Counted from the stretch's first letter, positions 4,280 to 42,796 are shown. The stretch is DNA of 64,000 nt from a virus (IMGVR_UViG_3300050491_000011), one strand, 5' to 3'. Numbers and translations: made by a program. The notes: generated from the letters alone by a model not told the origin.

Positions 4280-4288
4280 CCGCATTGC

Positions 4289-4309
4289 AATTAATTACAG
4301 TAACACATT
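4289..4309 (+). promoter_or_regulatory. putative early promoter (AT-rich + AGTAACACATT)
   Basis: recurrent intergenic motif directly after a terminator. Confidence 0.55.
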
Positions 4310-4349
4310 GTAAACACGTAACATCCCATCCATCCTAGAGGGTCGTAAA

Positions 4350-17885: not shown

Positions 17886-18701
17886 ATGAAAGAGAAAGGC
17901 TTTAAATGGATCGTTGTATCTGATACAGCTGAACTGGCTGTATTCGGTAATATCCTTCACGTCGGTAACTGTCTGTCTCTCGACGATCTGTTTCAGAAGA
18001 TCAGTGTAGACATCGACAATGACGAAGACGCTGCTATCGAAGAGTACCGTCGTCGCCACCCCGGTGTTCTCGATGAAGAGATGCCAACGGATATGCGTGG
18101 CATGAAGAAGGCTAAGGCCCGCTCCGCTCTGGTGCAGGAGTTGGCCGCGTTGGGGGATGGTTCGGCTACTTACGTCAGCGTCATCAGCCCTAAGGATGCC
18201 GACACCATTCAGGCGAGCTTTAGAAGCCTCATCCTGCCGATCACGACCAAGCACAAGACTTTCCAGGAAGTAACCCGCCGCGTATGTAAAGCTCCTGAAG
18301 CTACGTGGTTCTTGGTGGCCGGTGCTGCATTCATCCACAACGGAACGGTTGATATCATCCGTCGTGGTCAGGATACGTGGGCACATCTCCCAATGTCGTT
18401 CCAGATGATGGAACCTAAGGAGCTGGATGAGACGCGAACCTACGTCTGTCAATCCAAAGGTCCGACTGGGTTCACGACATGGATCTCTCAGGACGTTGAC
18501 CAGATCGTGCTGGTAGTTGAGGAGGGTGAAGGGTCTACCGTTAAGTTGGTGTCCTACACTCCGACCAATGCGTTCTGCGCAGAAACAGCGAAGGGTGAAG
18601 TTCAGCGACTGTACGAAGACGCTACCATTGCCTTACACGACGGGTTCATCGACTTCCAGTTCGAAGCTTCGAAGTACGACCCAGTTCGGGAAATAGTGTA
18701 G
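17886..18701 (+). CDS. hypothetical protein
   Basis: GAGGTG RBS, 271 aa. Confidence 0.8.
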   Translation: MKEKGFKWIVVSDTAELAVFGNILHVGNCLSLDDLFQKISVDIDNDEDAAIEEYRRRHPGVLDEEMPTDMRGMKKAKARSALVQELAALGDGSATYVSVISPKDADTIQASFRSLILPITTKHKTFQEVTRRVCKAPEATWFLVAGAAFIHNGTVDIIRRGQDTWAHLPMSFQMMEPKELDETRTYVCQSKGPTGFTTWISQDVDQIVLVVEEGEGSTVKLVSYTPTNAFCAETAKGEVQRLYEDATIALHDGFIDFQFEASKYDPVREIV

Positions 18702-18704
18702 GTT

Positions 18705-18738
18705 CCGTAAATAGTTACTGGCATAGTGCTATCTTATG
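18705..18738 (+). promoter_or_regulatory. CCGTAAATAGTTAC-N16-TATG putative promoter
   Basis: one of three bipartite copies; TATG is the known phiKZ late-promoter core. Confidence 0.6.
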
Positions 18739-19345
18739 TGAACATTCGCACTAAGGACTTCGATTGGACATTCGTGTTCGTATCGCGGTGGCTCTTTGCG
18801 CGGTTCTTGCTTCGGTAGACTCGACGGCTAAACCTCCCGAGATTCGGGTGGCGCAGCCGTCGTACTACACTTCCTCAGATGAACAACTTACCAAGATGCA
18901 AGTCTTCTTGCAGGCGAGGGAGTTGGAACTCGAGAAGCGCGAATTCGACCCGTTCTTAAGTACCACGTTCTTCTGGGGAACGAAAGGGCTGAGTGGGACG
19001 ATTATTGAACCTCGCACCTGCAACCCTGCCAGCGTATACTCAGTCACAGGGCGTTGGACCCTGGTTAGGCATGAGAGAGACTCCCTGACACCTTTCGGGA
19101 CTTGAAAGATTTACCCACCCGACTGATAAGTGTAGATAGTCAAAAATCGATTCGGGATAACCGGTCAAAGAGGCTCCTGTGTGGAGCAAATGCCAACCCT
19201 GTCCTCCGATGCGCTCGGATCGCCAGATGGTAGATGTATCCGCCACCCCAAGAACTGAAGGCGCCGCCGTTCCAATGCCAGGGATACCTGGGTTTGAGTT
19301 CGGGGTGACCAATAGGTGAGGGGTGGCCATTTCTTTTCTTTATGC
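18738..19345 (+). ncRNA. candidate structured RNA A (whole segment, or only 19106-19345)
   Basis: follows palindrome+TATG; hairpins 18823-18861 and 18897-18912; GCCACCCC 19242-19249 pairs with 19320-19327 before a U-rich run. Confidence 0.4.
18764..19105 (+). CDS. uncertain ORF with signal-peptide-like N-terminus, inside structured segment A
   Basis: TTG start with AAGGA upstream; overlaps several hairpins. Confidence 0.35.
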   Translation: MDIRVRIAVALCAVLASVDSTAKPPEIRVAQPSYYTSSDEQLTKMQVFLQARELELEKREFDPFLSTTFFWGTKGLSGTIIEPRTCNPASVYSVTGRWTLVRHERDSLTPFGT

Positions 19346-19373
19346 CGCAAACATTTATTAAGGTGCCATCATC

Positions 19374-19886
19374 ATGACTACACCACGTTTAGGTGATCCA
19401 ATCATCTCGACAGATAAAGACGGTAAGGAACGACGTTCGTATGTAACGGTAAACCCAGATCGTCGTACAGCTCCTCACCGCCGTATGAAGAAAGACATCG
19501 CTGAGCAAGCCAAACTCCGCGAGGAACGTGAAGCTGCGGAATGTCTAGCGGAACCAATCCCAATGTTTGATGGGACCGCAGCAGCGGCTGCTTACGACCT
19601 AGCCGCTGAACATCTCGGCATTAGCCTCATGGGTACGAACATCCGCGTTCTCGATATGCTGGAATCGTATCAGCTCCACGTTGAGCGTAGTCATGACGGC
19701 CTCCTCAAGATCCCGTACTCCAAGGATGTTGATGAACTCATCCAGAACGGTGCCTTCAAGCCGTACATCGGTAAGCTGTACAACCATCCTATCGACTATG
19801 TCGGTAATGTCGGCATCGCCTTAATGGAAGCCTTACCCAACTCCGGGTTTATGGGGTCCGCAACAATCACCTTCGTCGCAACATAA
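19374..19886 (+). CDS. hypothetical protein
   Basis: AAGGT RBS, 170 aa. Confidence 0.75.
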   Translation: MTTPRLGDPIISTDKDGKERRSYVTVNPDRRTAPHRRMKKDIAEQAKLREEREAAECLAEPIPMFDGTAAAAAYDLAAEHLGISLMGTNIRVLDMLESYQLHVERSHDGLLKIPYSKDVDELIQNGAFKPYIGKLYNHPIDYVGNVGIALMEALPNSGFMGSATITFVAT

Positions 19887-21438: not shown

Positions 21439-22512
21439 ATGATCGTGTCGAATAAACGCCCTCTCGTTTTATTTTCTGGTGGTTTGGATTCAACCTTCAA
21501 CATGCTTCGCCACACACTCGAAGGTGAGTCAGTTGATTACGTTTATATTGACGGTGGTCAAGGTAAGAATAAGGTCAATTCAGAGGAAGCGACTATCGAC
21601 CGTATTCTTACTGCCTTGCATGAACATGCTCGACGTAAGGAAAAGAGTGTCCATCATCGGTTCAGCACGCATCCTCTGTCGAAGGTTAACTTCTGCAATA
21701 CTCCTAGCGCCGGATGGCGTCAACCTATTCCTTGGCTGGTATCGGCTCTAGAGGTCGTAGATCCGGAGAAGCACTCGGTAGTTGAAGTGTCCTACGTTCA
21801 GGGCGATGAGATCATCAGTCGTATTCCTGAGCTTAAAGCTGCGTGGGCTGCAATGTGGTCAGTCACCAAGATCGGCGAACTCGTCCCACTGGAGTTCCCA
21901 CTCAAGGACATCAGTAAGCAAGCCATCCTCTGTCAGATGCCCGAAGAGATTTACAAGCTGACGTGGGTGTGTGAATTACCGATCATGCAGACGTTCGCTT
22001 GGCCAAAGAGCTGCATCGAATACGGCCGTAGCCATAACGCTCGCTGCCGTGCGTGTGAAACTCGTCTCGTTGAGCTGTATCGTTTCGAACTCCGTAACGG
22101 TAAAACTCTCGAGCAGTATCACATCGAATGCGCTGAGAAGATTGCTCGTGAAGAGCAGGGAGAGAAAGACCGTCTGCGTCGTCGACAGGAACGTATCGCT
22201 GAAGACATGGCCGATGGTTACAAGTCCGCCCTACCTCAGGATGGCGCGGTAGAGACCTTCACTCAAGACTTCTCGTTACTCGAGAAGGAAACATCGCCTA
22301 CGTTCGATCGTTTACCTAATCGCGGTGACTGGAAAGAACCAACTGTTCTGGCGGTTACTAATGCCGACGGTGAGCCGGGTGGATTCTACGTTACTGATGC
22401 AACCACGATGGACCAATTGATGGCGTACGCACACACGTCTGACTTTGAACTGATCAATGCGTGTGAAGAAATAGCAGACGCAATCAAAGACGAGAAAGCA
22501 TCAGCGGCTTAA
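21439..22512 (+). CDS. QueC-like PP-loop ATP pyrophosphatase
   Basis: LVLFSGGLDS PP-loop; C-terminal Cys cluster WVCE..C..CRAC. Confidence 0.75.
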   Translation: MIVSNKRPLVLFSGGLDSTFNMLRHTLEGESVDYVYIDGGQGKNKVNSEEATIDRILTALHEHARRKEKSVHHRFSTHPLSKVNFCNTPSAGWRQPIPWLVSALEVVDPEKHSVVEVSYVQGDEIISRIPELKAAWAAMWSVTKIGELVPLEFPLKDISKQAILCQMPEEIYKLTWVCELPIMQTFAWPKSCIEYGRSHNARCRACETRLVELYRFELRNGKTLEQYHIECAEKIAREEQGEKDRLRRRQERIAEDMADGYKSALPQDGAVETFTQDFSLLEKETSPTFDRLPNRGDWKEPTVLAVTNADGEPGGFYVTDATTMDQLMAYAHTSDFELINACEEIADAIKDEKASAA

Positions 22513-34060: not shown

Positions 34061-34073
34061 GACTGAGGAAGTC
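34061..34073 (+). promoter_or_regulatory. SD hairpin GACT-GAGGA-AGTC (compensatory variant)
   Basis: ATG 34077. Confidence 0.8.
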
Positions 34074-37490: not shown

Positions 37491-37500
37491 GCTGCGTTAA

Positions 37501-37522
37501 TAAACCGCAGTCACACATTACC
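37501..37522 (+). promoter_or_regulatory. putative early promoter (AGTCACACATT)
   Basis: recurrent motif. Confidence 0.5.
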
Positions 37523-37554
37523 ATTTTAGATACACCAACCAAAGGAGAAGTTCC

Positions 37555-40827: not shown

Positions 40828-40910
40828 CTGCATGCGTAATAAAAGAAAACAGAGTCTTATATTGTACACTTGAATCTATACCGCCCCTAATACCCGCACG
40901 GAGCATCAAC

Positions 40911-41708
40911 ATGTCTGCCTACCTGTCGCAACAAGATCAAATCAAAGTCAACATTCTGGAAGGCTACGCTCCTCGCAAGCTTACCAATGTGGAAGTCATC
41001 ATCAACGAGATCCGTCTGTTCGATTGGACCTATCCTGATAGTGACTGCCCTAAGGCCTACAGGGCTGGCGCTGAGCGTAAAGAAGTTCTGCGTAGCGCTA
41101 TCTCCTACACGCTTGGCGATAACCCGTCTCTCGCTACTCTGGCGCGTGCTGCGCTGGAAGGTCAACAGGCCCGTAACGATCTGTTTGACAAATACCCGTA
41201 CGTCAAGCACTTCGATCTGATGAATGCCAAGCACCACAAAGGTCTGCTCGGTTGTCATCTGGCTGGTATTGAAGAACATCGTGTCCGTGGAGCCATCAGC
41301 TTCCTCAAAGACCTCTACGACGTCGTTGTAGCGCTTCCAGCGAACAAGAGCAACGTATTCATCTCCACCAATAGAACGCCGATGTATCGCGAGCTGAGAG
41401 CCATTGCTACCAACTCCAAGGTTCCGGCTCTCTTCGGTATGGCGATCCCGGCTCCGCTTCAGAAGCAGGTCTATGAACTCCTGCGTATCAACACGTATAC
41501 GCTCGACACCATCCAGACGTACAGCCTGCACTGCACCGACGAAATGATGGATTACTACAAGAACCATCCGAGCGCCAAAGAAGCTTTCCGCGTCTTCAAT
41601 ATGTTTGAAGTCGTTAACTGCCCTTACGTGCAGGATGCGAAGTATCTTCAGGTCATCATGAATGATCGGTACTACTCGTTCTACGTCAAGCGTAATCAAT
41701 TCGTGTAA
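40911..41708 (+). CDS. hypothetical protein
   Basis: GGAG RBS, 265 aa. Confidence 0.8.
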   Translation: MSAYLSQQDQIKVNILEGYAPRKLTNVEVIINEIRLFDWTYPDSDCPKAYRAGAERKEVLRSAISYTLGDNPSLATLARAALEGQQARNDLFDKYPYVKHFDLMNAKHHKGLLGCHLAGIEEHRVRGAISFLKDLYDVVVALPANKSNVFISTNRTPMYRELRAIATNSKVPALFGMAIPAPLQKQVYELLRINTYTLDTIQTYSLHCTDEMMDYYKNHPSAKEAFRVFNMFEVVNCPYVQDAKYLQVIMNDRYYSFYVKRNQFV

Positions 41709-41753: not shown

Positions 41754-42569
41754 GTGATTTCCGTGAGCGATATTAAAGTCATGGTTAGCGGTGCAGTGGG
41801 CGTTGGTAAGAGTCACGTATTGGCGGTCATTGAGCGAGCCTTGAATGAGGCTTACGGAGATACCATCAAGATCGAATGTGAGGACACTGAGAGCGAGCGT
41901 CGATCTATCGGTGAAGACATCCGTGAGTGGCAGCAGCCTACGGTTGAGAAGATCATTCTAACGCCGTATACGGCGTGGCGTCGAGAAGAGATCGTTGAGG
42001 ATGGCGACGTACCTGCCCTCGATTACTTTAGTGAGTGGACGACAGGTCGGGTAAGTGAAGTAGTCCCTGCTAATCTGTCTCCGTCTGAAGTCAGCGATAT
42101 GGTTAAAGCTTTCGATGAACTGTATCCTCCGTTCAAGCCTCGGTACGAATCGCTGAATGGTCGGATCATTCGGATGGATGAAGGTCATCCAACTGCGGCT
42201 AAAGCAGCTCTCGCCAAACTGGCTGAGTCTGCGAACTTACTGCACGTCGAAATGTTCATGCCGGGTGATACCAACCAGATGATCGGGCTGGGTTACATGA
42301 ATGACGCCAACCTCGCAGTGCAGTACGCGAACCTTATTAAAGGCATGGTCTTCGATATGGCATTCGTTGAACCGTACTTCGGTGATCAGGAAAAGGTCAC
42401 TACGTTCCGTAATGTAGAAGTCCAGTCTGCGATGACTCAAAAGAATGACGGTAAGACTTCAGCGTCCGTTGGATTCAAAGTCGGTAAGATGCGCGTCCAC
42501 CTTCGGAATAAGCACGACAACGATCCATTGCAGTTCGGCATTCCTCTTGGCGTTACCGAGGAAAGCTAA
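41754..42569 (+). CDS. hypothetical protein with N-terminal P-loop-like motif
   Basis: GAVGVGKS near N-terminus. Confidence 0.7.
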   Translation: MISVSDIKVMVSGAVGVGKSHVLAVIERALNEAYGDTIKIECEDTESERRSIGEDIREWQQPTVEKIILTPYTAWRREEIVEDGDVPALDYFSEWTTGRVSEVVPANLSPSEVSDMVKAFDELYPPFKPRYESLNGRIIRMDEGHPTAAKAALAKLAESANLLHVEMFMPGDTNQMIGLGYMNDANLAVQYANLIKGMVFDMAFVEPYFGDQEKVTTFRNVEVQSAMTQKNDGKTSASVGFKVGKMRVHLRNKHDNDPLQFGIPLGVTEES

Positions 42570-42570
42570 T

Positions 42571-42603
42571 CCGTAATTAATTACGGGTGATGGAATCAGT
42601 ATG
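42571..42603 (+). promoter_or_regulatory. CCGTAATTAATTACGG (perfect palindrome)...TATG putative promoter
   Basis: bipartite copy, 15-nt spacer after TTAC. Confidence 0.65.
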
Positions 42604-42796
42604 TGAGAACGTCCTCCGACCATTAAAGTCCTAAGCTTGGTCGCCCAATGTCCTGCGTGGTCGTGGGGTGTCTTCACGTTCAATGAGAAGTTGTACGGTT
42701 GCGGTATTTCCTGTGCTTAAACTCTCATCCGCTCATTGAACATCTTGCACTCCGTCGGTGGCTTCGGTCATCGACGGGGTTATTTTTCGCTTTATG
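42603..42796 (+). ncRNA. candidate structured RNA D (about 190 nt)
   Basis: perfect 16-bp palindrome+TATG; 10-bp stem 42678-42687/42732-42741; terminator 42750-42779; no + strand ORF. Confidence 0.5.

Follow-up and report, generated by a model that had tools for sequence, protein, structure and literature searches.

A small-protein gene and a conserved structured RNA in one segment of an uncultured virus related to jumbo phages

Between two protein genes of an uncultured virus lies a segment (18738-19345) that can fold into nested stems and that also contains a small open reading frame. Does this segment work as an RNA, as a message, or as both? The original prediction took it for a functional RNA that exposes a 10-nt complement of ribosome-binding hairpins elsewhere in the genome, with the caution that the 5′ part may be mRNA. 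Sequence reading together with inverted-repeat and pattern searches located every motif that it had named. The claim of an RNA function stood for the 3′ half, which has a conserved fold with strong covariation, but not for the exposed 10-mer.

The window, that is, the whole stretch of 64,000 nucleotides analysed here, is part of a 188-kb virus record in IMG/VR (G000) that is about 75% complete, and the proteins of this genome show distant kinship with jumbo phages such as PaBG and Erwinia phages. Coordinates are those of the window unless stated otherwise. Fifteen close relatives (loci L003 to L017, L021 and L022) were obtained from protein look-ups with the ORF, from protein look-ups with the downstream gene, and from one metagenome pattern scan. 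They are mosaics with few alleles per module (two alleles per module). Distant members are L023, the contig of the homologous protein P0011, and the IMG/VR contigs L024-L026. Two other exact-pattern matches from metagenomes, L019 and L020, were chance matches to unrelated DNA and were discarded. The cultured-phage collection had no match to the segment by DNA or by the two proteins, and a tRNA/tmRNA scan found none. The features of the 5′ part and the neighbouring genes are as follows.

17886-18701, + strand: upstream neighbour, a 271-aa ORF
18706-18738, + strand: promoter-like conserved block CGTAA-N5-TTACTGGCA..TGC..TATG with a putative transcript start at G 18738, recognised by conservation and a phiKZ-like layout
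18739-18763, + strand: 5′ UTR, with the Shine-Dalgarno (SD) sequence AAGGA at 18753-18757, 6 nt 5′ of the TTG start (read directly)
18764-19105, + strand: 113-aa small-protein gene with a signal-peptide-like N-terminus, a conserved core to codon 78 and a variable tail, recognised by dN/dS, an open frame in relatives and a homologue
18822-18862, + strand: nested mRNA hairpin over codons 20-33, recognised by fold energy and by a hairpin at the same site in relatives
18869-18878, + strand: ACTTCCTCAG, complement of the core of the GACT-type SD hairpin, codons T-S-S; exact here, and judged probably coincidental
18897-18912, + strand: hairpin TGCAAG-TCTT-CTTGCA (read directly)
19374-19886, + strand: downstream neighbour, a 170-aa ORF

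The small-protein gene

The ORF at 18764-19105 is a genuine protein-coding gene. Its TTG start is unvarying among the close relatives, and the frame is open in 15/15 of them, as a 100-aa or a 113-aa form. Over codons 2-78 the dN/dS values among close relatives are 0.18-0.58, and variable columns number 18/14/31 at codon positions 1/2/3, which is a third-position excess. The signal-peptide-like region varies by synonymous and conservative substitutions. The caution that the 5′ part may be mRNA was thus correct, as the ORF is under purifying selection. From codon 79 onwards the ratios are 1.3-2.3, and this tail is without protein-level constraint. A profile search of 1.84 billion representatives yielded one further family member, P0011 (101 aa, 49% identity over 74 residues), which has an ATG start and a hydrophobic N-terminus. 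The 113-aa protein had no match in Pfam, PHROG or cultured phages and no usable match in the ESM Atlas, and its AlphaFold model is poor (pLDDT 50). The N-terminus has two Arg and then a 12-residue hydrophobic run, with a helix at residues 3-17 in the AF2 model, and we propose that the product would be exported or membrane-anchored.

The tail of the ORF (18998-19105) occurs as two unrelated alleles, the 100-aa and 113-aa forms, with dN/dS above 1, and that of the 113-aa form extends into helix H1 of the RNA described below. P0011 shares features of the 100-aa form (NPxD...TPxxWS), which suggests that in this genome the 113-aa tail is the derived one. In codons 60-78 (DPFLSTTFFWGTKGLSG, 18940-19000) synonymous change is almost absent, whereas dS among the same relatives is 0.2-0.5 elsewhere. 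Third-position identity is higher in the ORF core (72-88%) than in neighbouring genes (29-71%).

The nested hairpin inside the ORF has arms (18822-18840 and 18844-18862) with 79% complementarity and a perfectly paired outer stem, CGACGGCT/AGCCGTCG. Its fold has an energy of -29.4 kcal/mol (z = -4.0), was equalled in stability by 0/200 shuffles and leaves 18869-18878 unpaired. The relatives also have a hairpin at this site, partly in other registers (z -1.5 to -3.8), and distant L023 has one with different arm sequences (z -2.5). The hairpin as predicted is present and recurs in altered form, but the ACCTCC in its internal loop, which had been read as an anti-SD element, varies in relatives. 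For the outer stem, no more than 66% of cells show pairing, and its covariation and pair counts lie within those of shuffles and controls. Because a hairpin forms there in every lineage, selection may favour an mRNA hairpin where the signal peptide meets the mature protein, which is a suggestion only.

The structured RNA in the 3′ half

The 3′ half (19079-19348) is a real, uncatalogued structured RNA. Five helical domains, H1-H5, span 19079-19327, about 270 nt, and are followed by a terminator-type signature.

19079-19141, + strand: H1, formed by GACU/AGUC (19079-82/19138-41), CUG.CAC/GUG.UAG (19085-91/19130-35) and UCGGG/CCCGA (19095-99/19118-22)
19149-19166, + strand: H2, hairpin GAUUCGG-GAUAA-CCGGUC, unvarying in close relatives
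19173-19187, + strand: H3, hairpin GCUCC-UGUGU-GGAGC, with 100% of cells paired
19191-19232, + strand: H4, formed by UGCCA/UGGUA (19191-95/19228-32), CUG/CAG (19199-201/19224-26) and a variable apical UCCGA/UCGGA (19205-09/19215-19)
19242-19327, + strand: H5, an 86-nt irregular hairpin with base GCCACCCC/GGGGUGGC and apex CCAGG-GAUA-CCUGG (19278-91), recognised by fold energy and covariation
19328-19348, + strand: U-rich tract and TTTATGCCGC (19339-48), a terminator-type signature that contains TATG, recognised by its recurrence after hairpins

With ten close relatives aligned in MAFFT, the paired fraction of cells is 97%, compared with 25-43% for slid partners, and 9 pairs are doubly changed, compared with 0-2. 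The covariation score was matched by 0/500 shuffles of this alignment and the count of doubly changed pairs by 2/500. Addition of L023 gives 18/67 compensated pairs. With L023-L026, 24/67 pairs carry compensatory double changes (3-5 when slid), 94% of cells are paired (31-42% when slid) and the covariation score is 0.286 (0.02-0.06 when slid), a value reached by 0/500 shuffles; these alignments with distant members were fitted to the covariance model, which favours pairing, and the MAFFT-based result for close relatives is free of this bias. Because the sequences are few and mosaic, the independent events are fewer than cell counts suggest. The architecture of H1, H4 and H5 was recovered from independent folds of each variant. 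The folding energy of the whole domain is ordinary, with z -0.97 here, +0.30 in L003 and -0.05 in L023.

H1 has an identical fold in every sequence variant, with two perfectly covarying pairs (G-C/A-U and C-G/G-C), and the stop codon of the ORF (19103-05) sits in its loop. In the distant members, the bulge of H2 is moved via paired changes, which gives GAGUCGG..CCGCUC, and H3 carries two double-sided pair changes, U-A to G-U and C-G to U-A. The apical hairpin of H4 is CCGUG/CACGG in other relatives; in the distant members three pairs of the basal helix are compensated, and the interior measures 65-67 nt compared with about 29-33 in the model. H5 folds at -46.3 kcal/mol (z -3.2) and has the same architecture in five sequence variants, with many compensated pairs, one of them in the base stem (distant members). 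Its apex is CCAGG/CCUGG here, CCCCG/CGGGG elsewhere and CCCUG/CAGGG in L023.

For the 3′ end, alternative pairings of CACCCC with either GGGGTG or GGGGTGGC had been predicted. One of the two holds: GCCACCCC (19242-19249) pairs with GGGGTGGC (19320-19327) at 8/8 positions, and CACCCC:GGGGTGGC is the invariant base of the last domain. The pairing with GGGGTG (19302-19307) is less good, and in the conserved fold GGGGTG is part of the middle helix of H5. Because GGGGTG is replaced in most relatives, a switch of CACCCC between two partners is unsupported. Two other candidate pairings were rejected. RNAalifold paired the A-rich 19167-72 with the U-tract, but U-tracts are promiscuous and the window's own MFE fold picks another partner. 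An inverted repeat would pair 18981-87 with 19091-97, but 19096 covaries with 19121 instead.

In the 3′ part, insertions or deletions of 1, 2 or 5-6 nt separate the relatives, and on both strands the invariant blocks fall in different frames in this genome and in L003. A minus-strand ORF of 96 aa (19040-19330) and + strand ORFs of 43 and 46 aa were rejected as genes; in relatives the invariant DNA is read in frames other than these, and such substitutions as occur in the three ORFs are few and non-synonymous. The covariance model finds exactly one copy of the RNA each in G000 and in G001, a complete relative, and neither a DNA search nor the covariance model found paralogues. Rfam 15 gave no match at the gathering score and, at E up to 10, only a spurious minus-strand match to a human lncRNA (E = 1.8). 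The H2 sequence TTCGGGATAACCGGT has a 15-nt exact copy on the minus strand at 40920-40934 of the genome (outside the window), in a coding-like context; about 0.1 were expected, and the copy is probably due to chance.

The leader, the end signature and the exchange of the ORF

In all close relatives, identity is 98-100% over the last 57 nt 5′ of the start codon, compared with only 38-65% for the upstream gene. Conservation of this leader sets in at the same point in L017 and L021 despite a different upstream gene. Its core, CGTAA, TTACTGGCA, TGC, TATGT and CGCAnTAAGG, is retained in distant L023-L026; CGCAnTAAGG is unvarying across all clades, and TTAC..TATGT is also kept across them. The G of TATG (18738), which had been guessed to be the transcript start, falls within this block conserved across all clades. 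A sigma-70 promoter scan found none. Nucleus-building jumbo phages transcribe with their own polymerases. In phiKZ, late promoters start at the G (+1) of TATG, and the middle promoters have AAanTTACc near -24 as well (PMC4666361). Here the centre of ATAGTTACT lies 24 nt 5′ of G 18738, TATG is present, and TTAC stands 16 nt before TATG; the layout of the leader block resembles that of a phiKZ middle/late promoter. Because the strict phiKZ middle-promoter pattern has only one occurrence in the whole genome, a transcript start at 18738 is likely but unproven. The loose pattern TTAC-N15-19-TATG has 12 and 4 matches compared with 7 and 9 in controls, which is no enrichment. The start of another candidate RNA unit (42569-42613) has TTAC-N15/16-TATGTGA in common with 18715-18745, and this pattern may be a common promoter class for such units.

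At the 3′ end, the 8-bp GC stem base of H5 (19242-49/19320-27) encloses 70 nt and is followed by CAUUUCUUUUCUUUAUGCCGC. A generic terminator scan made no call at H5 because the loop is long. TTTATGCYGC has 11 copies in the 188-kb genome, compared with 0 and 1 for a reversed-pattern control on the two strands, and 8/11 copies, that at 19339 included, stand directly after a hairpin or after a T-rich spacer. The end signature is kept in L023 and L024 and slightly changed in L025/L026. Conserved terminator motifs have been reported in the chimalliviruses phiKZ and 201phi2-1 (PMC11512511, PMC10914365), and TTTATGCYGC after a hairpin looks like the terminator signature of the present clade. Its copies are distributed as follows.

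4274, 19339, 37486, 40822 and 42791, + strand of the window: TTTATGCYGC
30332, - strand of the window: TTTATGCYGC
Elsewhere in the genome: five more copies

The start codon of the downstream gene lies 25 nt from TTTATGCCGC (at most 45 nt with the signature counted), and the spacer is 93-100% conserved in close relatives. The TATG within the signature may also start the next transcript, in which case the very small distance to the next gene would be accounted for. Several + strand copies of the signature have a start codon 25-90 nt later. In addition, an AT-rich stretch (TTAATTA or TAATAAA) and then CACATT or CACACTT occur 3′ of several signatures, and may serve the next gene as a promoter element.

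4284-4320, 37496-37525 and 40832-40870 of the window: AT-rich/CACATT stretches
22398-22440 and 180308-180340 of the genome: AT-rich/CACATT stretches

The distant members show which parts of the segment are kept. L023 has the order leader block, homologous ORF, RNA (103 bits), U-tract and TTTATGCCGC, and its flanking genes have no counterpart in G000. Nucleotide identity to L023 is 72-79% for the RNA compared with 61-62% for the ORF. Searching for the pattern of the H1 5′ arm brought up L024-L026, in which the RNA scores 84-101 bits. In L025 and L026 the genes on both sides are syntenic with those of G000, at 30-45% protein identity, so that this is one locus shared with distant relatives. In L024-L026, however, leader and RNA enclose an unrelated ORF of 87 aa (hhalign probability 0.06), which had no match in G000.

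L024:1362-1625 (- strand), L025:6539-6802 and L026:3093-3356: 87-aa acidic Cys-rich ORF, MFGSF...EEEDCC...AEIWTRFGMAQTP

The stop codon of the 87-aa ORF lies inside H1. Across the three versions of the ORF, the stop codon is found 21 nt before H1, in the H1 loop or in the H1 5′ arm. Because distant phages keep both leader and RNA around an unrelated ORF, the two form a conserved unit; as judged from these comparisons, leader and RNA are evolutionarily constrained and the ORF between them is exchangeable cargo. Persistence of leader and RNA during exchange of the ORF is an unusual property for a phage-encoded structured RNA. The RNA is held at one syntenic place even when the preceding ORF is replaced, although neighbouring proteins are only 30-45% identical, and this pattern separates the parts that are protected by selection (leader and RNA) from the unprotected cargo ORF.

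Possible functions of the unit

We see an even chance for the following model. The segment would be one compact transcription unit of a soil jumbo phage, in which a short transcript would start from the conserved promoter-like leader (about 18706-18763) and the small ORF (18764-19105) would be translated into a protein for export or for anchoring in the membrane. Immediately after the stop codon, the 270-nt RNA of five domains (19079-19327) would form the 3′ part of the mRNA, and transcription would stop at H5 and the U-rich/TTTATGCYGC signature. The RNA would be the main functional product of this unit with its exchangeable ORF, and would probably accumulate as a stable RNA derived from the 3′ end of the message. 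Its action would depend on the fold, through bound protein or tertiary structure, and not on the 10-nt anti-SD match.

Typical 3′-UTR-derived small RNAs are much smaller than 270-320 nt. Such RNAs are known in bacteria (review PMC9438474), and the present RNA is similar to them in that it stands directly behind a stop codon, would share the terminator of the mRNA and is more conserved than the coding part. It differs in its length of about 270-320 nt, its five domains, its exchangeable upstream ORF and the lack of a conserved single-stranded seed with identified targets. Small RNAs have been mapped by ONT-cappable-seq in the chimalliviruses 201phi2-1 and phiKZ, and one of this type is conserved by position across genera (PMC11512511, PMC10914365). 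These are likewise short jumbo-phage transcription units between phage promoter and terminator motifs; however, they are intergenic or derived from 5′ UTRs and are shorter than 250 nt, whereas the present RNA follows an ORF and belongs to an uncultured phage known from sequence alone. ROOL and GOLLD (Rfam RF03087 and RF01998) are also phage-encoded, conserved multi-helix RNAs, but Rfam searches at E up to 10 gave no genuine match for the present RNA, which is much smaller and is tied to an upstream ORF. The RNA biology of jumbo phages is barely charted, and the unit adds a well-supported structured RNA that is absent from catalogues and is a concrete target for probing, pull-downs and transcript mapping.

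A tentative alternative, to which we give clearly less weight, is that the RNA is a cis-acting 3′ UTR, that is, a terminator combined with a stabilising, translational or localisation element for the upstream small ORF, so that leader and tail would be a portable expression cassette. The RNA always adjoins a small ORF and could equally be a cis element of that mRNA. The position of the stop codon, 21 nt before H1 or within its loop or 5′ arm, fits this reading, as does the joint retention of leader and tail upon the ORF swap, and a separate promoter motif between ORF and RNA was not seen. However, a generic cassette would be expected to recur, and there is a single copy per genome. The sequence of loops and linkers is conserved, and protection from exonucleases would require far less than five domains over 270-320 nt. 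The RNA is also at least as conserved as the ORF that it would serve (72-79% compared with 61-62% identity to L023).

It is also conceivable, although rather unlikely, that leader and tail are two halves of one riboregulatory gene of a soil chimallivirus-like clade, and that termination of translation at or in H1 helps to fold, release or activate the RNA. If true, the RNA would be coupled to translation in a way that has not been described for structured RNAs of phages.

An explanation at the DNA level appears improbable. It holds that leader and hairpin-rich tail are boundaries between which recombination swaps accessory ORFs, as has been described for the PeSL promoter-terminator motifs of T4-like phages (PMC2839356, PMC4122927). 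In both cases unrelated small ORFs are exchanged between conserved regulatory flanks, which is seen here in L024-L026, and the mosaic structure of the close relatives, with two alleles per module, is in line with it. PeSLs flank many accessory genes per genome, whereas the tail here is single copy, long and has RNA covariation. Compensatory changes that preserve pairing are needless for a recombination substrate, and the element stays at the same syntenic position across 30-45% protein divergence.

Regulation of the downstream gene (19374-19886) is more doubtful still. The RNA would then be a leader or attenuator that switches between CACCCC:GGGGTG and CACCCC:GGGGTGGC. A stem and U-tract just 5′ of an SD sequence is the classical layout of attenuators, and the next start codon follows after only 25 nt of a 93-100% conserved spacer. 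This reading is weakened because the downstream gene differs in L023-L026, where it is unrelated and the RNA persists. The alternative partner GGGGTG is not conserved, and the TATG of the signature could itself start the next transcript (PMC4666361).

Finally, regulation in trans, in which the RNA would use its exposed ACTTCCTCAG to base-pair with GACT-type SD hairpins and thereby regulate translation at these sites, is very improbable, since the 10-mer lies inside a translated ORF under purifying selection. The match itself is exact. ACTTCCTCAG (18869-18878) is the complement, and the sole reverse-strand copy, of CTGAGGAAGT, which occurs on the + strand at 34063, 59663 and 60453, each time within cGACTGAGGAAGTC immediately 5′ of ATG; the CTGAGGAAGT/ACTTCCTCAG word has four matches compared with 0.12 expected, and the position of the 10-mer is single-stranded in the local MFE fold here. 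However, the target is matched three times because it is a repeated motif, and the 608-nt segment has 139 exact 10-nt complementarities to the + strand of the 188-kb genome, with about 107 expected. The position is partly paired in L003 and L017. Relatives of the L003 type have TGTTCCTCAG at this site, with 8 nt of the complementarity left, and those of the L005 type have TGCAACTCAG, with 5 nt left. The 10-mer is thus neither conserved nor covarying with its targets, though the L003 genome (G001) retains three GACTGAGGAAGTC target hairpins. No equivalent was evident on reading the ORF of L023. The 5′ part is conserved as a protein, with changes that break both the stems and the 10-mer, which for this part is the outcome that the original prediction had itself named as refuting it. 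Pairing of the 10-mer with the ribosome-binding hairpins is probably a coincidence, and the idea of base pairing between late RNAs and the ribosome-site hairpins of early genes has one pillar fewer. The likeness to CsrB/RsmZ-type or anti-SD riboregulators lay only in the predicted engagement of GGA-containing ribosome-site hairpins or their reader; unlike these regulators, the present RNA has no repeated GGA motifs and no conserved anti-SD element. The family of SD hairpins itself, GACYGWGGARGTC (26264-61762), is real and lies exclusively in the forward orientation, with 12 copies here and 11 in G001 (0 in reverse in both), and its T..A and C..G stem variants are compensated.
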